Shown here: one piece after another, positions 8,771 to 18,045 of the stretch | Position numbering within the stretch: position 1 is the first letter of the stretch | Layout of the letters: the number at the start of each line of letters is the position of its first letter | Notes under the pieces: model-generated | What the model was told of the DNA's origin: nothing | The model's input: the letters and a program-made list of their open reading frames with translations, nothing else | Database searches by the model: none | Source: Gammaproteobacteria bacterium | GTDB taxonomy: Bacteria; Pseudomonadota; Gammaproteobacteria; JAJDYQ01 | NCBI GenBank assembly: GCA_036985915.1 | Contig: BTQO01000002.1 | Coordinates: forward strand, 3,541 to 27,540 | Direction of reading: 5' to 3' | DNA: 24,000 bases | Position numbers and translations under genes: made by a program

Positions 8771-9409
8771 TCAGGACTGCTGAAAAGCCACACCGGTACC
8801 ACCAAGCGCACAATAACCACCGGGTGGTTTAGCAAGATACTGCTGATGATAGTCCTCCGCATAATAAAACTTAGGCGCATCGATAATCTCTGTTGTGATC
8901 GAAGACATGCCCGCTGCATTCAACAGCGCCTGATACGTGTTCCTGGAGTCCAGTGCAGCCTGCATCTGCTCCTTTGAATACACGTAGATACCTGAACGGT
9001 ATTGGGTGCCAACATCATTACCCTGGCGCATTCCCTGGGTTGGATCATGCGCCTCCCAGAAGACCCTTAATAGTCTATCGAAAGAGACTGCCGCTGGATC
9101 GTAAATTACCAGAACAACCTCGTTGTGCCCTGTTTGACCGCTGCACACATCCTGGTAGGTTGGATTTTTTGTATAACCCGCCGCATAACCAACAGCCGTA
9201 CTGTATACACCTTCAGTTTCCCAGAACTTCCGTTCTGCACCCCAAAAGCAGCCTAGTCCGAACATCGCAAGTTTCATATGTTCAGGAAACGGCGGTTTTA
9301 TCGGGTTGCCGTTGACAGTGTGACGGTTACCCACCTGCATGGCTTCGGCACGCCCAGGTAAGGCCTCATCTTCGCTCGGCATCAAACTCTTTTTATTTGG
9401 CATAAACAC
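8771..9409 (-). CDS. msrA: peptide-methionine (S)-S-oxide reductase MsrA (cytoplasmic type)
   Basis: Colinear with E. coli MsrA: [19 protein letters not shown].., catalytic [13 protein letters not shown], and no signal peptide. Confidence 0.95.
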
Positions 9410-9522
9410 GGCAAGTCACTACTCAGGAATGCTTGCTTCAAAGAGACTTTAATAGAAAAGTATATTTTATTTTCTACATTAAGTTCATGCATTAACTATT
9501 CGATATCGATGCTTGATGCATA

Positions 9523-10401
9523 TTAATCTCCGAGATATTTATGCACGAAATCCGCTGTCCGCTGCATTGCATCCTTCGCTGCCAGGTCATCGGCAAACGT
9601 TCGTACATGCGGCGGCCTGAAATCAAACCCTCGCCCAACACCTGGGTAGACGATCACCTTTGCATCTCTTTTTTTCTCTTTCAATGCATCAATCCCGGCC
9701 AGTATCGGACGATAACGCTGGTACTGCTCGTGATCGCCAAGGAATACCAACACCGGCACATTCAGATCATTGATTTCAGGCGCGTAACGGTAGACTTGCA
9801 TAGGTTCACCTGCATTGGGATCCTGCCAATGGGGGTAGTACGAAACATAACAGGCGACCTTGTCCTTTTGACGACCCTTGGTGACCAGCGCCTTGAGTGT
9901 CATGTAGCCGCCGCGCGTGTGAGACACGGTACATATTTTTTTGCTCTTCACATCAGGCAGGGTCAACAGATAGTCAATACCCGCCGCTACATCATCTTCA
10001 ACTTCATAACGATGCTCGATTGGAAACTTCTCTATAAAATTAGCCGTCCAAATATCCGGCGCCAAAACGACAAAACCGCGCGCAGCCAGGCGGATGGGAT
10101 GCAGCCTGGTAAGATCATCAATCCCTCGCCGGCCATGCTGAAATAAAATGCCGGGATATGCGCCCTTGGCCTTCGGCCGGATTAACAAGGCTGGCACTTC
10201 AATATCCCTGCTCTTGTAGGATACTTCCTTGATAACAACTTCGTAATTCGCCGGCTGCCTGAGCTTCCCTTTTTCCCACCAGCCGTCGTCCCACCACCAC
10301 TTTTCCTTATCTTGCGGGTATTCCATTTTTACCCACGGCTCATGCATCGCCCATGCGGTGTTCGCCATCAGGTACATCAACAGCACAAGCAGTAATCTCA
10401 T
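9523..10401 (-). CDS. secreted dienelactone hydrolase-family alpha/beta hydrolase
   Basis: Signal peptide MRLLLVLLMYLMANTAWA. DLH-like core: PGILFQHGRRG, a nucleophile-elbow-like CTVSHTRGGYM, and a C-terminal His region. Confidence 0.7.
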   Translation of the reverse strand: MRLLLVLLMYLMANTAWAMHEPWVKMEYPQDKEKWWWDDGWWEKGKLRQPANYEVVIKEVSYKSRDIEVPALLIRPKAKGAYPGILFQHGRRGIDDLTRLHPIRLAARGFVVLAPDIWTANFIEKFPIEHRYEVEDDVAAGIDYLLTLPDVKSKKICTVSHTRGGYMTLKALVTKGRQKDKVACYVSYYPHWQDPNAGEPMQVYRYAPEINDLNVPVLVFLGDHEQYQRYRPILAGIDALKEKKRDAKVIVYPGVGRGFDFRPPHVRTFADDLAAKDAMQRTADFVHKYLGD

Positions 10402-10557
10402 TTCATGTTCCTCAAACTATGACGTTACATTCGGGAAGTATACGCAACATACATCACGGGCGCCCCCGGACTGATTGAATCCGCCATGCACCATCCGGGA
10501 AACCAACTGCACCATTATTTGTCATAACCATAGCTTAACAACCTTATAACCGGATTA

Positions 10558-11199
10558 ATGACCATGATAATTCGTATGCTACCCCTGACATTTACAGGAT
10601 TCCTCAGCATTTTTCTGGTTTCAGCGGCAATATCTGCCCATGCCGATGATCATGCCGTAAACGCGCCTGCCAAGACCGCGAAGGCCACATTTGCAGGCGG
10701 GTGTTTCTGGTGCATGGAGCCACCCTATGATGCCATTGATGGCGTTCTTTCGGTCACCTCCGGTTATACCGGTGGAAAGCTTGCCAACCCCACTTACGGT
10801 CAGGTCTCACGTGGCGGGACCGGTCATGCTGAGGCAGTCCAGATCATCTACGACCCGGCACGTGTAAGTTACGACGAATTACTGAGGGTTTTCTGGCGAA
10901 ATATCGACCCGCTTGCCAAAGACTATCAGTTCTGCGATTACGGCGATCAATACCGGGCTGCGATTTTCTACCACGATGATGAACAGTTTCGGCTTGCCAT
11001 GAACGCCAAGCAAGCCCTGGTGGATAGCAAACGCTTTGACAAACCGATTGTCACTGAAATAGTGCGAGCAGGTCCTTTCTACCCGGCTGAGGATTACCAC
11101 CAGGAGTATTACAAAAAGAACCCGGTGCGCTACAAGTATTACCGCTGGCGCTGTGGGCGTGACCAGCGACTGGAAGAGTTATGGGGAAAGCCTCAATGA
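10558..11199 (+). CDS. msrA: MsrA paralog with N-terminal signal peptide (predicted periplasmic methionine sulfoxide reductase A)
   Basis: Signal peptide ..FLVSAAISAHA followed by an MsrA core with FAGGCFWCMEPPYD, GYTGG..NPTY..V..G.TGHAE and AEDYHQEY. Confidence 0.85.
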   Translation: MTMIIRMLPLTFTGFLSIFLVSAAISAHADDHAVNAPAKTAKATFAGGCFWCMEPPYDAIDGVLSVTSGYTGGKLANPTYGQVSRGGTGHAEAVQIIYDPARVSYDELLRVFWRNIDPLAKDYQFCDYGDQYRAAIFYHDDEQFRLAMNAKQALVDSKRFDKPIVTEIVRAGPFYPAEDYHQEYYKKNPVRYKYYRWRCGRDQRLEELWGKPQ

Positions 11200-11327
11200 T
11201 AAAAAATCCTGGTCAATTCCACAGATAAATTGAGTAACAACCATACCGGGGACGCATTCGAGCCTTGTCAGGCATAAAAACATGTGTTATAGCAGATTGG
11301 GGTTGATTCGCAAGAAAAATCAAGTGG

Positions 11328-12098
11328 TTGCGGCATGCCGCGGGGGAATCCGGACAAGTGCTGGAAAACTATCAGGATTATATCGAAGCAGCCGGCAAGA
11401 CCAGGTCCTTGAAGGACATTCATGCGCTCTGTTCCGATATGTGTAACCACTATGGCTTCGATCACTTTGTATACGGAGCAAGATTTCCTACTTCTTTACT
11501 CAATCCAAAGATTGTCTTCATCAGTGGCTACCCAACACAATGGTGGGAGCGCTATAAATCAGAAAATTACATGAGGATTGACCCGCTTGTGGCGCATTGT
11601 GAGCACAACATCACGCCTATTCGCTGGGATTGCATACAAAGGGATTTGCTTGAATCACCAAACATAAGCCGCTTTATGTCAGAGGCAGTTGATAGCGGAT
11701 TACGCAACGGTTTGAGTATACCTGTTCATACAAGCAATGGTGAGTTTGCCATGCTCAATTTTTCCACCTCAGATAGCCCTGAGAAATCTTCTGATCATAT
11801 TATTCAAGGTACACCCGAAGTGTACTTGCTTACCAACTACATCCACGAAGCTGTAACCCGCATCGTAGATGCTCTGGGAGAAGATAAGCCTCTCGTTAAA
11901 CTCACAAACCGGGAACGAGAGTGCCTTTTGTGGGCTGCTGATGGTAAAACGGCCTGGGAAACAGCCCAGATACTCAAAGTCTCCGAAAGAACTATTGTCT
12001 GGCATATCCAGAATGCCCAATCAAAGCTCAAAACCGTCAGCAGACAACAAACGGTCGCAAGAGCCATCTCAAGAGGCATCATCTCTCCGCAACTTTAA
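11328..12098 (+). CDS. luxR: LuxR-family acyl-homoserine-lactone-responsive transcriptional regulator
   Basis: The autoinducer-binding domain has the conserved W/Y/D-P/W/G positions (TQWWERY, RIDPLV, PIRWD, GLSIPV). C-terminal LuxR HTH: LTNRERECLLWAADGKTAWETAQILKVSERTIVWHIQNA. The true start may be the GTG at 11358, preceded by GGGGGA, rather than the TTG at 11328. Confidence 0.92.
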   Translation: MRHAAGESGQVLENYQDYIEAAGKTRSLKDIHALCSDMCNHYGFDHFVYGARFPTSLLNPKIVFISGYPTQWWERYKSENYMRIDPLVAHCEHNITPIRWDCIQRDLLESPNISRFMSEAVDSGLRNGLSIPVHTSNGEFAMLNFSTSDSPEKSSDHIIQGTPEVYLLTNYIHEAVTRIVDALGEDKPLVKLTNRERECLLWAADGKTAWETAQILKVSERTIVWHIQNAQSKLKTVSRQQTVARAISRGIISPQL

Positions 12099-12167
12099 AG
12101 GCTGGCCTTAAACGCATGCTCTTGCGTATAAGCAATACTTCTTTTGTTTTCAATATGTTACGCATGC

Positions 12168-12187
12168 ACCTGTAAGATCTTACAGTT
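12168..12187. promoter_or_regulatory. lux box (LuxR-type operator) upstream of the first luxI
   Basis: ACCTGTAAGATCTTACAGTT contains a perfect 16-bp palindrome, CTGTAAGATCTTACAG (12170-12185). Compare the Vibrio fischeri lux box ACCTGTAGGATCGTACAGGT. The centre lies ~70 bp upstream of the luxI ATG at 12248. Confidence 0.85.
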
Positions 12188-12247
12188 ACGCCGCGTCAGT
12201 ACTCTGTCGTTTACTTATCCGGGGTGGTTTTTCCGGAGGTGTCGACG

Positions 12248-12895
12248 ATGTACAAAATATTCTGGGGCAAGGCAAACACTCTAAATCAGGCGATACTCGC
12301 TTCATTATTTTCATTCCGCTATCAGGTTTTCCGGCAACGGCTTGGATGGGATGTAGTTTGCAATGAGGGCCAGGAAACAGACCGATTCGATACTATAAAC
12401 CCGGCCTATATTGTTGCGTTAAACAAGAAGGGTGTTGCCGAGGGTTGTTTCCGGCTACTGCCAACAACAGGTGATTACATGCTAAAGCATGTTTTTCCTG
12501 AAATGATTGATGGCGATGACGCACCATGCGATGAAACTATTTGGGAGCTAAGCCGATTCGCTGTTATGCCTCGAAAAAAGAGTGCAGCAGTAAAAGGCGG
12601 CTGCTGCGCGGTAACGTTCCAGATTATCCGCAGTGTCTATGACTTCGCGGTAGCACATGGTATTAACCGGTATGTGTTTGTTACCAGCGTTGCCGTTGAA
12701 CGGCTATTGCGGCGACTTAAATTGCCAGTATCACGCTTTGGTAGCGGACATACATATCGACTCGGAAAAGTGCGATCTGTGGTGTTATGGGTTGATATTA
12801 ACGATCAATTCCGCCAAGCAATGTACGGCGACGCAGTGCCTGTAACACCGGATATAAATCTACTCAGCGGCTCCGGGTATGAACAGGCAGCCTGA
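12248..12895 (+). CDS. luxI: acyl-homoserine-lactone synthase, LuxI family (copy 1, canonical motifs)
   Basis: FRYQVFRQRLGWDV, GQETDRFD, FRLLPTTGDYML and IWELSRFAV are all LuxI-family signature blocks. GGAGG at 12235-12239 precedes the ATG at 12248. Confidence 0.92.
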   Translation: MYKIFWGKANTLNQAILASLFSFRYQVFRQRLGWDVVCNEGQETDRFDTINPAYIVALNKKGVAEGCFRLLPTTGDYMLKHVFPEMIDGDDAPCDETIWELSRFAVMPRKKSAAVKGGCCAVTFQIIRSVYDFAVAHGINRYVFVTSVAVERLLRRLKLPVSRFGSGHTYRLGKVRSVVLWVDINDQFRQAMYGDAVPVTPDINLLSGSGYEQAA

Positions 12896-12905
12896 TCAGA
12901 GGCAA

Positions 12906-13550
12906 ATGCTTATGCCAATCATAACAGCCAAAATAGGAGATCCTGCCCTTACCCCCGTACTTCTCGCCGATATGTTCAGCTTCCGTGCCCGTGTCTTTTC
13001 ACAGCAACTGGGCTGGGAGCGCGAATCGGACCAGGGGCGGGATAACCTTGATGACCTCAACCCGGTGTACGTCATATCACTTGATCACGGCCGGGTGAAT
13101 GGCTGCCTGCGGCTGCTGCCAACGGACGGCTGGTATATGCTCGGTGACGAATTTCCTGAACTGCTATGGGGAGAGCAGCCACCGCGCAGTCCGGTGGTCT
13201 GGGAAGTCAGCCGTTTTGCGGCGCAGGAAATAAATGCACCATGCGAATCATCAGTACAGATAGCGTCTCCTGACATCGCTTGGGAATTGATTTTATCCGC
13301 CATGCGCTTTGCGCTGAATGCCGGGGTCGAAACTTTCGTTGCAGTTGCCAGCACTGACGTTGAATCCTATCTGAAGTCAGTCGGCCTGCGAATGCGTCGC
13401 TTTGGTCTAGGCCATCAGGTGATGGTTTCCGGCTGCGCGATTACTGCACTAAAAATAAATGTTACCGCATCCCTGGCAAGGATAGACCTGGGAACACTCT
13501 CAGGAAACCAACACCATGCCGCAGCCACTCAACAACGCTCTGGAGATTAA
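12906..13550 (+). CDS. luxI: acyl-homoserine-lactone synthase, LuxI family (copy 2, divergent)
   Basis: FRARVFSQQLGWE, LRLLPTDGWYML and VWEVSRFAA are conserved, but the acidic block reads QGRDNLDD. Candidate starts are ATG 12879 (overlaps copy 1), 12906 (AGAGG upstream) and 12912. Confidence 0.85.
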   Translation: MLMPIITAKIGDPALTPVLLADMFSFRARVFSQQLGWERESDQGRDNLDDLNPVYVISLDHGRVNGCLRLLPTDGWYMLGDEFPELLWGEQPPRSPVVWEVSRFAAQEINAPCESSVQIASPDIAWELILSAMRFALNAGVETFVAVASTDVESYLKSVGLRMRRFGLGHQVMVSGCAITALKINVTASLARIDLGTLSGNQHHAAATQQRSGD

Positions 13551-13552
13551 CA

Positions 13553-14005
13553 TTGCTAAGAATACTCATGGTTGGTGCCTCGTCACGGACGGCATCTTTT
13601 TTTAATACCATTTGCGGCAAACGGGGACTGGCAGTGACAATACAGGATGACCCCGAAAGGGCATCCGAATTGCTGCGCAGCAATCCTGATACCTATGACT
13701 GGGTCATCGTAGAGGGCGATGATACCGCTGAACACACCGGTATTATTTCCAATACCCTGTCATCTAAAGATTCCAGGATACCACTGGCACTGCTGTATCA
13801 CCCGGTACAGTCATTTGGTGCGGTAGACGATATGTGGGCGGGCTCGCGACCACAGCAAAGATCACCTCAATATCATTCCCCTGAATTGCTTTCGCAACCA
13901 GAAGAACCCTGCCTGGTAACAAAACAACAGCACACTGTTACTGACTATGACCCGGTGGTGCTTGAATACCACGCCCCCTGTAAACCGAGGGCCAGGAAAA
14001 ACTAA
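13553..14005 (+). CDS. hypothetical 150-aa protein with a degenerate receiver(REC)-like N-terminal half and a P/Q-rich tail
   Basis: A TTG start lies 2 nt after the luxI-2 stop, with GGAGA 6 nt upstream. RILMVG..(helix)..LAVTIQ..(helix)..YDWVIVEGDD..IPLALLY follows the beta-alpha pattern of CheY-like receivers but lacks the N-terminal acidic pair. Family assignment is by eye only. Confidence 0.5.
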   Translation: MLRILMVGASSRTASFFNTICGKRGLAVTIQDDPERASELLRSNPDTYDWVIVEGDDTAEHTGIISNTLSSKDSRIPLALLYHPVQSFGAVDDMWAGSRPQQRSPQYHSPELLSQPEEPCLVTKQQHTVTDYDPVVLEYHAPCKPRARKN

Positions 14006-14032
14006 GGAAACTCTGATTTATTCTGAGTTTCC
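14006..14032. other. 8-bp perfect inverted repeat directly after the orphan ORF's stop
   Basis: GGAAACTC (14006-14013), an 11-nt spacer, then GAGTTTCC (14025-14032). No U-tract follows, so it could be a weak terminator or a protein-binding site. Confidence 0.3.
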
Positions 14033-14053
14033 GCGGTACAAGGACGATGTACA

Positions 14054-14127
14054 CGACTCCATGGCAAGGATTGTTCCCGACAATCCTTTTGCATTTCCTC
14101 CATCCATGGAGGTAGATGGAGGAGATA
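14054..14127 (+). repeat. 74-bp direct repeat, copy 1
   Basis: CGACTCCATGGCAAGGATTGTTCCCGACAATCCTTTTGCATTTCCTCCATCCATGGAGGTAGATGGAGGAGATA. It is 73/74 identical to 14179-14252, a 125-bp period. Confidence 0.95.
14066..14090 (+). terminator. terminator-like hairpin inside repeat copy 1 (an identical copy lies at 14191-14215)
   Basis: AAGGATTGT-TCCCG-ACAATCCTT is a 9-bp perfect stem with a 5-nt loop, running into TTTT on the + strand only. Confidence 0.35.
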
Positions 14128-14178
14128 GAGCCGCGTCGGGAACGGCGGCCGAAGGATGTACAAGTGTCGCGAGAGGCG

Positions 14179-14252
14179 CGACTCCTTGGCAAGGATTGTT
14201 CCCGACAATCCTTTTGCATTTCCTCCATCCATGGAGGTAGATGGAGGAGATA
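14179..14252 (+). repeat. 74-bp direct repeat, copy 2
   Basis: Same sequence as 14054-14127 apart from one A-to-T difference (14061 vs 14186). Confidence 0.95.
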
Positions 14253-14430
14253 CGAGCCCATGGATGGGCGAAGGTAGAACAATGCAGGAGCAATTGTCGA
14301 GAATGAAGCACGACTGCATGGACGCAGAAGGTAGAGCAACGCATGGAGCAGTTGCCGAGGAGCCAGAGCCGAGGATGCCGGGAGCGGCTGTACCGCCAAA
14401 ATCGATCCTCGCAGGGAATTGATTTTGTGA

Positions 14431-14458
14431 GGAAAACGGAAACTTGTTTTCGTTTTCC
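14431..14458 (+). terminator. terminal 13-bp hairpin closing the GGA-rich region
   Basis: GGAAAACGGAAAC-TT-GTTTTCGTTTTCC has one mismatch. No clean U-tract follows, so terminator function is uncertain. Confidence 0.3.
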
Positions 14459-14593
14459 GTGCGCTGATAATTCTTAGATGGAATTATTCTTAAGCTTCCC
14501 TAAAACTAGGGTCTGCGTTCTTTTTGTGTAATCGCCTTTCTTTTTATATGCTGATCAAATTCGCCCTGCGAAAAACCATCAGCCTGGTCAAAA

Positions 14594-16318
14594 CTACATG
14601 AGCGGTCTTGGTTCTTCGATGCCATAACCTTGAGCATAATTGACACCTATCTCCTTCAATTTCTTTAAGATAGCATCATCTTCAACAAATTCGGCAATGG
14701 TTTGTTTGCCCATCACATGGCCTATTTCGTTAATGGATTTAACCATTGCATAATCGATAGGGTCATTCACGATATTCTTAACAAAAGTGCCATCTATTTT
14801 AAGATAATCGACTGGCAGATTTTTTAGATAGGCAAATGAGGAAAATCCACTGCCAAAATCGTCAAGAGCAAATTTACAGCCATCTTCCTTCAGGGTATGT
14901 ATAAAATGTTTTGCATCGTTCAGGCTGGTAATTGCCGCTGTTTCTGTAATTTCAAAGCAGATCTTCTCTGGCGGTATTGAACTATTATTCAGCGCATGGA
15001 CTATAACACTTAAAATATGATCGTCACTAAGGGTCTGTCCAGAAATATTTATCGAACAAATCTGAAGATTCTCGAGTTTCTCCGGATTGGCATCCAGCCA
15101 GGAAAAGGCCCTTTCGACCACCCACTGATCTAACTTGCTTGATAGGTTAAAACGCTCTGCCGCAGGAAGGAAATTTCCTGGTAGCACCATATTTCCTTCC
15201 TCATCCTCCATCCTGACGAGCAGCTCATAATGTTCTCTTTGTTGTCCGTTTATTATCGGCATTATCTTTTGGTAATAAAGATGAAAGCGATCTTCCCTGA
15301 TTGCCTTGGTTATTGAACTCACCAATTTCATTTCTTTATTTTGCTGCGCCAGTTCACTATCGGATTGATCAAACATCCGTATACGATTTCGACCGGCATC
15401 TTTCGCAGCGAACAAGGCTGCATCAGCCATATTCATCGCGCTGGATATTTTCTTCACGGCGGTATTTACGGGTGCGACCCCGATACTGGAGCTTATATCA
15501 AATGACTTATCTTCCCAGGTAAATACATGAGCCCGGATCGCATCCCTGAGACGCATAATGACCTTGTCAGCCTGTAGCATTGGACAGATCATCAGCAATA
15601 TTCCAAACTCATCACCATCAATTCTTGCGACTATGTCGTTCTGTTTTAGCAAACCCCTTAAGAGACTGCCTACCTGGCGCAATAGTTCGTCACCTGCAAC
15701 GTATCCACATGTATTATTAATGACCTTGAATTGATCGAGGTCGATGTAGCATAACGTGTGCTCAATATCATTTAAGCTGGTTATATCCATGCTTTGCTGT
15801 AGACGATGTTCGAACTCCCGCCGATTGACAAGCCCAGTTAAAGGATCGTGCGTTTCCTGATATGACAGCTTTTCCGAGAGTGTATGTGCAACTGTTGTGT
15901 CTTCGCAGACCATTAAAAGCCTTTCCTCATTGCCGGCTTCCCGAACTATTCGAACAGTATTCCTGTACCACATGCCATCACCCGACTTACGCACCATCTT
16001 TGACTGGCGCACATGAACAATATCTGGTTGCTGAAGGAAGGCGGTAATCCAGGTCTGTAAAGCGTCCGTTAAACCCTCCGGATATACCACTGATATCGAC
16101 TGACCTAATAATTCATCAAGAGTGTAGCCCAGTTGTTCGGCGCCGAATCGGTTAACCGATAGGATTATTCCGTCCGCATTCAGTGTAAAAAAGATTGCTG
16201 GCGTATCATCGTAAAGCTCACGGTTGCGAACTTCAAATGCGCGCATATTTGGATCCTTTACGTTGTTCTTATTCATGCGGTTCCCTTTTTCTGCTTCCTG
16301 GCTTTTAATTGTGCTCAT
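14594..16318 (-). CDS. PAS-GGDEF-EAL c-di-GMP signalling protein (degenerate DGDEF motif, apparently intact EAL)
   Basis: PAS: FFTLNADGIILSVNRFGAEQLGY. GGDEF domain with RIDGDEFGILL. EAL domain with YELLVR, SINISG, CFEITE, ALDDFGSGFSS, LKIDG, IAEFVE and QGY. Confidence 0.92.
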   Translation of the reverse strand: MSTIKSQEAEKGNRMNKNNVKDPNMRAFEVRNRELYDDTPAIFFTLNADGIILSVNRFGAEQLGYTLDELLGQSISVVYPEGLTDALQTWITAFLQQPDIVHVRQSKMVRKSGDGMWYRNTVRIVREAGNEERLLMVCEDTTVAHTLSEKLSYQETHDPLTGLVNRREFEHRLQQSMDITSLNDIEHTLCYIDLDQFKVINNTCGYVAGDELLRQVGSLLRGLLKQNDIVARIDGDEFGILLMICPMLQADKVIMRLRDAIRAHVFTWEDKSFDISSSIGVAPVNTAVKKISSAMNMADAALFAAKDAGRNRIRMFDQSDSELAQQNKEMKLVSSITKAIREDRFHLYYQKIMPIINGQQREHYELLVRMEDEEGNMVLPGNFLPAAERFNLSSKLDQWVVERAFSWLDANPEKLENLQICSINISGQTLSDDHILSVIVHALNNSSIPPEKICFEITETAAITSLNDAKHFIHTLKEDGCKFALDDFGSGFSSFAYLKNLPVDYLKIDGTFVKNIVNDPIDYAMVKSINEIGHVMGKQTIAEFVEDDAILKKLKEIGVNYAQGYGIEEPRPLM

Positions 16319-16538
16319 AAATTATGCTGATACTCCAAGGTTCGCACTTATGTGCTATATAAAGACACGCAACCGGCATGGCCAGGACATGCGCCGGCTA
16401 CAATTCTATGGGCTATAACTAACCCTTAAGCAGCGTGGCAAACTGTGTGCATTTACACCACGCGCCTTCATCAATGCGATTCTTTATATTCTTGTCTGGA
16501 TGCCCGTCGATCATTATCGAATATAGCCATAACCGTCA

Positions 16539-16558
16539 AGCTGTAACTTCTTACAGGT
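16539..16558. promoter_or_regulatory. second lux-box-like palindrome in the divergent GGDEF-EAL / sugar dehydrogenase intergenic region
   Basis: AGCTGTAACTTCTTACAGGT. Its 16-bp core CTGTAACTTCTTACAG (16541-16556) matches the luxI lux-box core at 14/16 positions and the V. fischeri lux box at 15/20. It lies ~150 bp from the GTG at 16698 and ~230 bp from the start at 16318. Confidence 0.55.
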
Positions 16559-16697
16559 ATGGCATACCTAAATGCCGGGTAGCTAATGTATGAAGGCATT
16601 GGAATATGCAAGAATGCGCACAGATATCAGGCACATAGCATAGATATAGGTATTAGGGCCTTGCGGGGCGAAACGACCGGATAATGAGGTTAATCCC

Positions 16698-17936
16698 GTG
16701 CTAACCATAAACAACACGTGCTTAGGCAAATACCTGCATCTGATCGTGCTCACGGGGTTGTTCTCAGGCTATGTCTACTCTCCTGCCTTTGCCGGCACCG
16801 GTACTATTAAGGCCATCACACAACAATTATCAACACCGGCAGGCCGGGTAGAAATATCCATACCTAAGGGCTATACGCTCGATTTACTCTCAAGCAACCT
16901 GCGCTCACCACGCTTGATAAACTTCGCTGAGAATGGCGATTTGTTCATTGGCTCCCGTTCCGGGGCGGTCTACAGGTTGCAACCTCCTTATACTGAGGCA
17001 GATATTCTCGTCAGTCTCAATGACTATCCCCACAGCGTTGCCTTACGGCAGGGGGAAATGTTTATCGCACAAACACATGGCCTGTATCGCGCGCCTTATT
17101 TGCCGGGGCAGGACAGAATCAAACAACAGGATTTGCAGCTGGTCGCCAAACTACCGGGTGGACCGGGACACAACAGCCGCACCGTGCGTATCGGACCTGA
17201 CGGCAAAGTTTATGTGAGCCTTGGGATTGCCGGGAATTGCAGTGACCAGTACCTCGACCCATCCTATCCATTTGAAGACCGGCGTGGCGGTGTGCTGGTG
17301 CTGGATGAATCCCAACTGCGTCCGGTGTTCAGAACATTTGCATCGGGCTTAAGGAATCCAGTCGGTTTTGACTGGCAACCGGATACAGACATTATGTATG
17401 CCAGTAATAATGGCCCCGACCATCTGGGGTATGAACAACCACCGGAGTATTTCAGCAAGCTGATACCCCAATCTTTTCATGGCATGCCCTGGTTTTGGTT
17501 CGATGGCACAAAGATGGTGCGCGATCACTGTGTTGGCAGCACACCACCCAGAATAGACGCTAACCCACCGGTAGCCACGTTCCCTGCCCGCAACGCGCCC
17601 ATGGCCGTTGCATTTGTACCGAATGGCGCCATGGATGAACGGTTCAGGGGCGATGCCATCGTGGCGCTGCATGGCTCATGGGCCACACAACCCACAGGCG
17701 GTTTTAGTGGCGAGCCAAAAAGCCGCCGTGAACCAAAATTGGTGGTGGTGCGGTTTGAAGATGGCCAGGCAGTTCGTGTTGATGACTTGCTGACCGGATT
17801 TCAATCATCTAACGGAGACCGATGGGCCCGCCCGGTGGGTGTTGCCATAGGTCCGGATGGTGCGTTGTATTTCACCAGTGATTCTGGCCTTGAAGGCCTC
17901 TTCAGGCTCAGGCGAAATGGGCTAAATTCTTTATAA
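16698..17936 (+). CDS. PQQ-dependent sugar (glucose/sorbosone) dehydrogenase-family beta-propeller, secreted
   Basis: Hydrophobic N-terminal signal. Propeller motifs: GLRNPVGFDW, YASNNGPDHLGYEQPPEY, and RPVGVAIGPDGALYFTSD. GTG start preceded by GAGG. Confidence 0.8.
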   Translation: MLTINNTCLGKYLHLIVLTGLFSGYVYSPAFAGTGTIKAITQQLSTPAGRVEISIPKGYTLDLLSSNLRSPRLINFAENGDLFIGSRSGAVYRLQPPYTEADILVSLNDYPHSVALRQGEMFIAQTHGLYRAPYLPGQDRIKQQDLQLVAKLPGGPGHNSRTVRIGPDGKVYVSLGIAGNCSDQYLDPSYPFEDRRGGVLVLDESQLRPVFRTFASGLRNPVGFDWQPDTDIMYASNNGPDHLGYEQPPEYFSKLIPQSFHGMPWFWFDGTKMVRDHCVGSTPPRIDANPPVATFPARNAPMAVAFVPNGAMDERFRGDAIVALHGSWATQPTGGFSGEPKSRREPKLVVVRFEDGQAVRVDDLLTGFQSSNGDRWARPVGVAIGPDGALYFTSDSGLEGLFRLRRNGLNSL

Positions 17937-18045
17937 ATCAAGCCCTAATCATTATGGGCGCAAGTCTATATTCTGGTAAAATGAATTGTCTTTCTGTGGC
18001 TAAAAAAGCCACGATCTGCAAAAGAATAGTTAAGGAGATTACGCT

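Follow-up and report, generated by a model that had tools for sequence, protein, structure and literature searches.

A second lux-type box lies between two divergent genes of the window, by which we mean the whole 24-kb stretch of DNA analysed here, and it is probably bound by the LuxR-type regulator from a gene 4.4 kb upstream, in the form of a dimer carrying AHL. This box (box 2) would be an operator of the type found at luxI, where box 1 serves autoinduction, placing the divergent promoter region around it under quorum-sensing control. Its most probable target is a gene on the minus strand that encodes a protein with a PAS domain, a GGDEF domain with the degenerate motif DGDEF and an EAL domain. 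At high cell density this predicted c-di-GMP phosphodiesterase would be upregulated and c-di-GMP would be lowered; a dehydrogenase gene on the other flank may respond to this box as well. We give the combined statement, that LuxR uses box 2 as an operator and activates the phosphodiesterase gene from it, a probability of roughly 0.6. Summed across the readings discussed below, it is very probable that box 2 is a real LuxR-type site. We favour an operator because the arms of the box match those of the luxI operator, a weight matrix built from foreign boxes ranks it high, the pattern is rare, the site is invariant in a diverged relative (L165), a complete LuxR is encoded nearby, c-di-GMP genes are recurrently linked to related luxI loci, and there is a precedent in Nitrospira. 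The features on which this is based are the following.

11358..12098, plus strand: luxR-type regulator, 246 aa (Pfam Autoind_bind 1.7e-39, GerE 1.5e-15)
12168..12187, plus strand: box 1, ACCTGTAAGATCTTACAGTT, luxI-proximal lux-type operator, core CTGTAAGATCTTACAG at 12170-12185
12248..12895, plus strand: luxI1, AHL synthase (Pfam Autoind_synth 7.6e-32; NCBIfam TraI-type AHL synthase), GGAGG before ATG 12248
12879..13550, plus strand: luxI2, second tandem autoinducer synthase (Pfam Autoind_synth 1.2e-24), overlapping luxI1 by 17 nt
13553..14005, plus strand: orfX, small conserved protein that follows luxI throughout the LuxR clade
14594..16276 (open reading frame to ATG 16318), minus strand: gene for a PAS / degenerate GGDEF / EAL protein (Pfam EAL 7.8e-65, GGDEF 5.7e-35, PAS)
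16539..16558, no strand assigned: box 2, AGCTGTAACTTCTTACAGGT, lux-type operator candidate, core CTGTAACTTCTTACAG at 16541-16556
16698..17936 (GTG start), plus strand: beta-propeller gene of the sorbosone/PQQ-sugar-dehydrogenase family (Pfam GSDH, SSL_N), with a signal-peptide-like N-terminus

The quorum-sensing locus and its host

The host is the metagenome-assembled genome (MAG) BMS9Abin15 from a deep-sea massive sulfide deposit, a member of the order-level clade o__JAJDYQ01 of uncultured Gammaproteobacteria. Quorum sensing is not discussed in the paper describing this MAG. A LuxR protein with both domains and two AHL synthases are encoded in the same genome, so that a cognate regulator for the box is at hand. 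The luxR reading frame opens with TTG 11328, and a 96% identical homologue of 246 aa (P0121) begins at the GTG equivalent of 11358, which makes the latter the more likely start. The best solved relatives of this LuxR are QscR, LasR and RhlR, with which it aligns at the conserved W/Y/D/P/W/G and E/L/G positions. Tandem luxI genes are also found in L169/L170. The product of orfX has no Pfam or NCBIfam match; in blastp it hits the post-luxI reading frames of L167, L083, L171 and L177 with E-values of 1e-5 to 1e-15. A second LuxR gene can occur in related genomes (L167).

Sequence and rarity of box 2

The original prediction had described box 2 as a site with the length and half-sites of the luxI operator, matching it at 14/16 positions. 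Our reading of the sequence at both sites agrees: both 6-nt arms, CTGTAA and TTACAG, are identical, and the cores differ at positions 7 and 8 alone (GA vs CT). The core of box 1, 63 nt before the luxI ATG, is a perfect palindrome of 16 nt. Box 2 had been called a palindrome as well, which is true of its arms but not of its centre. Every base of one arm finds its complement in the other, which accounts for 12 of the 16 core positions, and the outer A..T of the flanks matches too, but the centre CTTC is not self-complementary and the dyad is therefore restricted to the arms. Box 2 has the dyad symmetry and the CTG-N10-CAG core by which lux-type boxes are recognised.

The two boxes are 4371 bp apart. 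It had been claimed that there is no further CTGTAA-N4-TTACAG site in the 24 kb, and a pattern search bore this out, finding exactly two (boxes 1 and 2), even with two mismatches tolerated. The exact pattern is expected 0.00 times per window according to 100 dinucleotide shuffles and about 0.0014 times analytically, and 1.87 Mb of unrelated loci from proteobacteria do not contain it. Among the loci examined, it was restricted to orthologues of box 2 and to the promoters of luxI genes from this LuxR clade. An origin of box 2 by segmental duplication of the luxI promoter was rejected, since the similarity between the two regions stops at the box edges. We also considered a CTG-N10-CAG site before luxR (11209-11224) as an operator and rejected it, as it matches the consensus poorly and is not retained in L082. 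CTG-N10-CAG sites are in excess in the window (15 vs 5), mostly from coding sequence.

Similarity to the luxI operators of the LuxR clade

We gathered luxI-proximal boxes from independent loci whose LuxR proteins are 44–52% identical to that of the window:

L167 (Sulfuricaulis sp.): ACCTGTAATTTCTTACAGCT
L169: CCCTGTTATTTCTCACAGTT
L083: ACCTGTCATTTCTTACAGTA
L171: ACCTGTAACATTTGACAGTT
L174: CACTGTAATTTCTGACAGTC
L177: CTGTCATATCTGACAG (core)

The consensus of the clade is CTGTAATTTCTTACAG / CTGTAAtTTCTtACAG. Box 2 departs from it at a single position (15/16), and its centre CTTC is closer to the clade type than the centre GATC of box 1. A weight matrix was then made from five foreign luxI boxes (L167, L169, L083, L171 and L174), with all sequence from the window excluded. 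Boxes 1 and 2 were the top two sites in the window under this matrix, with 24.4 and 21.0 bits, respectively; the next site scored 11.4 bits, and the best of 3.74 M background positions reached 17.8 bits. This result amounts to an independent prediction of box 2 from foreign sequences and is the strongest single piece of evidence for it.

Where measured, the luxI boxes of the clade stand 61–65 nt before the luxI start, and box 2 is far more distant from either of its neighbouring genes. Within 8–10 kb of the other quorum-sensing loci of the clade, no second box of at least 15 bits was found, the best site outside a luxI promoter reaching 14.2 bits (L171).

Conservation in relatives

A relative with 92–94% DNA identity was represented by two contigs (L082 and L165) of one JGI metagenome. 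L082 (94% identical) carries the genes DLH-MsrA-LuxR-LuxI; box 1 is unchanged in it, with varying bases on both flanks. L165 takes in the intergenic region together with the dehydrogenase gene and the 5' end of the c-di-GMP gene, with an identity of 92% overall and 88.7% in the intergenic region. Box 2 is identical in L165 and in L001, and it lies in the longest invariant intergenic block of the alignment between the window and L165:

16530..16568 (39 nt), no strand assigned: invariant block holding box 2, the minus-strand hexamer TTGACG and the palindrome GGTATGgCATACC

The intergenic alignment shows 43 differences in 379 columns. At this density, 16 given bases would remain free of differences with a probability of 0.14, and a longest run of at least 39 has a probability of 0.28; with one diverged relative, this is of weak significance.

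Searches with LuxR, phosphoribulokinase and the c-di-GMP protein yielded no orthologous intergenic region from more distant relatives. The LuxR search of genome contigs found no relative. The phosphoribulokinase search of genome contigs returned 80 loci, and the synteny of phosphoribulokinase, FIST protein and aldo/keto reductase was kept in Thiohalomonadales-like MAGs; none of these loci carried the dehydrogenase, c-di-GMP or quorum-sensing genes, or an orthologous intergenic region. A metagenome search in which the first 200 aa of the c-di-GMP protein served as query found homologues with at most 47% identity, which had no quorum-sensing genes nearby and no lux-type box upstream. A 15.7-bit site upstream of one of these homologues (L095) sits within PAS coding sequence and was dismissed as a chance match.

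The genes on both sides of box 2

Box 2 had been placed in a 380-bp divergent region, with the c-di-GMP gene starting at 16318. The divergent position is correct, but the start is probably ATG 16276, because in L165 the first 14 codons of the longer model carry an indel and substitutions that shift the frame, and the sequence MNKNNVK from the next ATG (M15) is kept. ATG 16276 has a Shine-Dalgarno-like sequence, AAGGGA. With this start the intergenic region measures about 421 bp and box 2 is 265 nt away from the gene. Since the c-di-GMP gene and the luxI operon run towards each other, the gene cannot be co-transcribed with luxI.

The catalytic motifs of the EAL domain are all present (ELLVR, SINISG, FEITE, DDFGSGFSS, KID, AEFVE and AQGY); we take their residues to have the roles generally known from the EAL family. 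The active-site motif of the GGDEF domain is not intact, reading DGDEF (RIDGDEFG), and the position of the RxxD inhibitory site is occupied by KQND. Cyclase activity is thus unlikely despite the GGDEF fold. With a degenerate DGDEF motif and an intact EAL domain, the protein is probably a c-di-GMP phosphodiesterase whose GGDEF domain is possibly regulatory. The original prediction had proposed that the local LuxR may directly control c-di-GMP turnover and/or the dehydrogenase. Our analysis supports a second lux-type operator, as this idea implies, and instead of c-di-GMP turnover one should speak more narrowly of a likely phosphodiesterase.

On the other flank, GTG 16698 of the dehydrogenase gene is 142 nt from box 2. 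The assignment of its product to the PQQ-type sugar dehydrogenases stands as a family match, with weak support: the Pfam GSDH score is 25.6 bits against a cut-off of 25, there is a weak PDB match (3a9g), and homologues carry the names sorbosone dehydrogenase or PQQ-dependent sugar dehydrogenase. The genes downstream encode phosphoribulokinase, a FIST protein and an aldo/keto reductase. The dehydrogenase gene was found at none of the other quorum-sensing loci of the clade.

Other functional elements in the intergenic region were considered as well. A riboswitch or another known RNA was rejected, as there was no Rfam match at the gathering score or with E≤1, and so was a structured leader (putatively 230 nt), which folds no better than shuffled sequences (z=-0.49). 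The region contains small reading frames of 20–64 aa, without supporting evidence.

Promoter elements around box 2

Lux-type boxes are 18–20 bp long and typically centred near -42.5 from the transcription start. In the intergenic region, a consensus scan found sigma70-like matches on the minus strand only, both of them at box 2:

16510..16539, minus strand: candidate sigma70-type core promoter of the c-di-GMP gene, with -35 TTGACG at 16539-16534 and -10 AATGAT at 16515-16510 (spacer 18) or GATAAT at 16518-16513
16520..16547, minus strand: alternative promoter and top minus-strand match of the scan, with GTTACA at 16547-16542 (within box 2), spacer 16 and TATATT at 16525-16520

TTGACG abuts box 2 and is conserved in L165 within the invariant block; each of the -10 candidates differs from L165 at one position. 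GATAAT lies 22 nt from the core of box 2, a spacing that puts the box centre at -42.5, and AATGAT puts it at about -45.5. Box 2 would then stand some 42–46 bp upstream of a transcription start near 16503–16506 and abut a -35 element, the geometry of a class-II-like LuxR activator site. At luxI, the box precedes a weak conserved element that resembles a -10 hexamer and lacks a -35 partner, and the luxI promoters of the clade share TCG-TTnACT 22–30 nt after the box, with an implied centre near -44.5. On the minus strand after box 2 we noticed TCG-ATAAT at nearly the same offset. Over the 5.9 kb from 11100 to 17000, promoter-like matches are found at chance level (9 against 9.3 expected), and the promoter arguments are therefore suggestive only.

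The cues for the direction of control conflict: the core-promoter elements and synteny point to the c-di-GMP gene, and the orientation of the box centre and the shorter distance point to the dehydrogenase gene.

c-di-GMP genes at related luxI loci

The core of the related loci consists of luxR, the box, luxI and orfX. We looked at the genes that follow:

L167: PAS-GGDEF-EAL gene after luxI-orfX, on the same strand and overlapping orfX
L177 (GCA_030148805.1): EAL gene after luxI-orfX, 9 nt behind orfX
L169: CZB-GGDEF gene after luxI-orfX, separated by a gap
L083, L171 and L174: no c-di-GMP gene after luxI-orfX

A c-di-GMP gene thus occupies the place after luxI-orfX in 4 of 7 independent loci, the window included. 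The background is about 1.3 GGDEF/EAL genes per 100 kb, as counted in 1.23 Mb of unrelated loci. In L167 and L177, which belong to related, uncultured Gammaproteobacteria resembling sulfur oxidisers, the EAL gene is effectively a member of the luxI operon and thus under the control of the luxI box. Both share with the window the LuxR clade (49–50% identity), the luxR-box-luxI-orfX core and an EAL-type gene whose GGDEF motif is degenerate or absent, presumably controlled by a CTGT-N8-ACAG box. Unlike in the window, their EAL genes are co-directional and operonic with luxI, and no second box is needed. A separate box before a convergent c-di-GMP gene would restore the operon-type coupling to luxI. 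The GGDEF-EAL protein of the window has only 23–26% identity with the operon-fused ones, so the linkage is one of function class and not of orthology.

Alternative explanations

Several observations weaken the reading of box 2 as an operator activating the phosphodiesterase gene. Conservation could be assessed in one diverged relative, promoter matches are at chance level, the box is oriented towards the plus strand, and it is closer to the dehydrogenase gene (142 vs 265 nt). The low identity with the operon-fused proteins, the absence of a second box at the other loci of the clade and the distance of 61–65 nt between luxI boxes and their genes have the same effect. It is conceivable that LuxR binds box 2 to control the dehydrogenase gene alone or principally, with a separate promoter of the c-di-GMP gene nearer to its start. 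Box 2 scores 21.0 bits on the plus strand and 15.6 bits on the minus strand, its asymmetric centre xTTC being oriented on the plus strand as the luxI boxes are relative to luxI. GTG 16698 is also the nearer start, and the TA-initiated hexamer TAGCTA follows the box at 23 nt, nearly the offset of 24 nt at which the conserved TTnACT stands in the luxI promoters. However, the -10 candidates on the plus strand are poor (TAGCTA has 2/6 matches), A16585G in L001 and L165 changes both TAGCTA and TAATGT, and the intergenic scan gave no sigma70-like promoter on this strand. In addition, the other quorum-sensing loci of the clade lack the dehydrogenase gene, and some have c-di-GMP genes. We therefore consider the dehydrogenase gene unlikely as the sole or principal target. 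Repression of the phosphodiesterase gene is distinctly unlikely in our view. LuxR would in this case occlude the promoter GTTACA-16-TATATT (box centre at about -35.5), so that the gene is off and c-di-GMP rises at high cell density. LuxR-family repressors that act by promoter occlusion are known (EsaR type), and the top minus-strand match indeed has its -35 element, 16547-16542, inside box 2. On the other hand, TATATT reads CATATT in L165, and the same LuxR is placed as an activator at luxI. We infer activation from this activator-type arrangement, from the affinity of the regulator to the activators QscR, LasR and RhlR, and from the EAL genes of L167 and L177, which as genes co-transcribed with luxI would be induced by a lux box.

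Least probable among the alternatives is that box 2 is a chance or non-functional palindrome, or the operator of another regulator, either a LuxR solo from another part of the genome or an unrelated dimeric protein that also recognises the adjoining GGTATGgCATACC. The scan covered 24 kb of the genome, box 2 was sought after box 1 had already been seen, and conservation in one relative is not significant alone (P=0.14). The invariant block exceeds box 2 on both sides and includes the second small palindrome, and two LuxR genes are possible in related genomes, as in L167. Against this, about 0.001 such sites are expected per window and none occurs in 1.87 Mb of unrelated DNA, and the clade matrix puts box 2 above all 3.74 M background positions. 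As for a paralogous regulator, the arms of box 2 are those of the luxI operator, so a paralogue binding here would be expected at box 1, too. Activation of the phosphodiesterase gene from a LuxR operator thus remains our preferred reading. It could be extended to a broader scenario, which we regard as rather doubtful: AHL signalling and c-di-GMP degradation may belong together in a module of ancestral origin, made up of luxR, box, luxI, orfX and EAL gene, in this order-level clade of uncultured, mineral-sulfide-dwelling Gammaproteobacteria. In the present MAG the EAL gene would have become uncoupled, and the coupling would have been restored by a stand-alone, bidirectional second box that also recruited the secreted beta-propeller dehydrogenase. 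If true, this would be a natural case of regulon rewiring by operator gain.

Comparison with known systems

Control of c-di-GMP enzymes through lux boxes by LuxR-type regulators is already established, and we do not propose a new mechanism. In Nitrospira, one lux box between the divergent nspI and a GGDEF/EAL gene serves NspR1, which activated both promoters in reporters and bound the box in EMSA (PMC8553950). That box is a 20-bp CTG...CAG palindrome located 81 and 125 bp from its two flanking genes (PMC8553950). As in Nitrospira, box 2 lies in a divergent intergenic region near a quorum-sensing locus and has a GGDEF/EAL gene on one flank. Unlike the single Nitrospira box, which is common to luxI and the GGDEF/EAL gene, box 2 is 4.4 kb away from a separate luxI box and lies between the c-di-GMP gene (265 nt) and the dehydrogenase gene (142 nt). 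Phylum and box sequence differ as well.

If box 2 is functional, an uncultured chemolithoautotroph from deep-sea sulfide would have a minimal regulon of two members, luxI and the gene for a c-di-GMP phosphodiesterase. Together with the operon-fused EAL genes, this suggests that AHL signalling in these bacteria recurrently leads to a density-dependent lowering of c-di-GMP. Lowered c-di-GMP would mean dispersal from mineral-attached biofilms or their remodelling. The locus provides a clean additional case of LuxR-type c-di-GMP control and a target for reporter assays.

A single site for a LuxR-type dimer can activate two divergent units, as is known from TraR and the tra boxes of Agrobacterium Ti plasmids. 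Box 2 resembles them as a single candidate site between two divergent transcription units; unlike it, tra boxes have the half-sites ATGTGCAGATCTGCACAT and belong to a plasmid transfer regulon. At the lux box of Vibrio fischeri, LuxR acts as a class-II activator of luxI with a centre at -42.5, and the las-rhl boxes of P. aeruginosa serve LasR, RhlR and QscR. The boxes of the window share with these the dyad with a CTG-N10-CAG core, and the LuxR of the window has the same two-domain architecture as their regulators. In contrast to them, the arms in the window are CTGTAA/TTACAG, and the centre of the clade boxes is T-rich and asymmetric (TTTC). Compared with the consensus ACCTGTAGGATCGTACAGGT, box 2 matches at 15/20 and box 1 at 17/20 positions.

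Tandem synthases and a conserved small protein in the luxI operon

The window carries two autoinducer-synthase genes in tandem, and the same arrangement is also seen in a relative from the LuxR clade at 49% identity (loci L169 and L170):

Window, 12248-13550 (+): luxI1 and luxI2, two genes with a 17-nt overlap
L169, 11007-12265: tandem autoinducer-synthase genes
L170, 1216-2474: tandem autoinducer-synthase genes

The two synthases share about 34-40% identity with each other's clade counterparts. The tandem pair and its recurrence in a relative suggest that one operon, driven by a lux box, gives rise to two AHL signals. A TCG-TTnACT element is conserved 22-30 nt 3' of the luxI boxes (12207-12215 in the window), and it occurs at equivalent offsets in L167, L171, L083 and L174, loci in which the LuxR homologues are only about 50% identical. 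This element presumably represents the weak -10 region of a LuxR-dependent luxI promoter.

After luxI, a small protein of 136-156 aa (orfX) is always encoded in this LuxR clade. By blastp the orfX proteins form one family, with E-values from 1e-5 to 1e-15 and these members:

Window, 13553-14005 (+): orfX
L167, 11534-11986: orfX homologue
L083, 6159-6605: orfX homologue
L171, 9466-9876: orfX homologue
L177, 9434-9904: orfX homologue

Comparison of the family with Pfam and NCBIfam returned no match; orfX is a conserved, uncharacterised component of the quorum-sensing operon.

The c-di-GMP gene and its flanking regions

Between orfX and the c-di-GMP gene, at the latter's 3' end, the window has a 495-bp segment (14006-14500) that is missing in a 93%-identical relative (L166), where 90 bp separate the two genes. 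The segment contains two 74-nt direct repeats, 99% identical and spaced 125 bp apart, each with a terminator-like hairpin (AAGGATTGTTCCCGACAATCCTT) and T-rich tail, plus ATGGAGGAG short repeats. It could represent an insertion or a small element, mobile or duplicated, and may provide terminators for the convergent transcription units on either side.

At the other end of the gene, the deposited 574-aa PAS-GGDEF-EAL model probably starts 14 codons too early (16276-16318), because a relative's contig (L165) has a frameshift across these codons, yet the protein is conserved from the ATG at 16276 onward. The gene's putative long leader includes the second-longest invariant intergenic block, 33 nt at 16403-16435 (TTCTATGGGCTATAACTAACCCTTAAGCAGCG); Rfam gave no match here, and the fold is not unusual. 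Immediately adjoining box 2, the second lux-type operator candidate, lies a 13-nt palindrome, GGTATG-G-CATACC (16556-16568), within a 39-nt invariant block that also holds the box. The palindrome is kept in L165 and may be the binding site of a second regulator. A 2557-bp contig from a different sequencing run (L001, 99.92% identical) differs from the window at only two positions, 16585 and 16679, both on the dehydrogenase side of the intergenic region, and the former changes the plus-strand -10 candidates.

Genomic context

The window shares PRK-FIST-aldo/keto-reductase synteny with Thiohalomonadales-like MAGs (L002, L007, L012, L013, L027). The luxR-to-dehydrogenase block (within 11300-17950) adjoins PRK in none of the 80 loci examined, and G+C falls to 41-45% across the c-di-GMP gene. 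A lineage-specific insertion may account for the quorum-sensing/c-di-GMP/dehydrogenase segment.

Just upstream of luxR lie two methionine-sulfoxide-reductase (MsrA) paralogues:

8771-9409 (-): MsrA
10558-11199 (+): MsrA

Between them is a dienelactone-hydrolase-family gene (DLH), and the order DLH-MsrA-LuxR is kept in the relative's contig L082. In the Sulfuricaulis relative (L167), two tandem LuxR-type genes precede luxI (9147-10750), with 41% and 49% identity to the window's LuxR.
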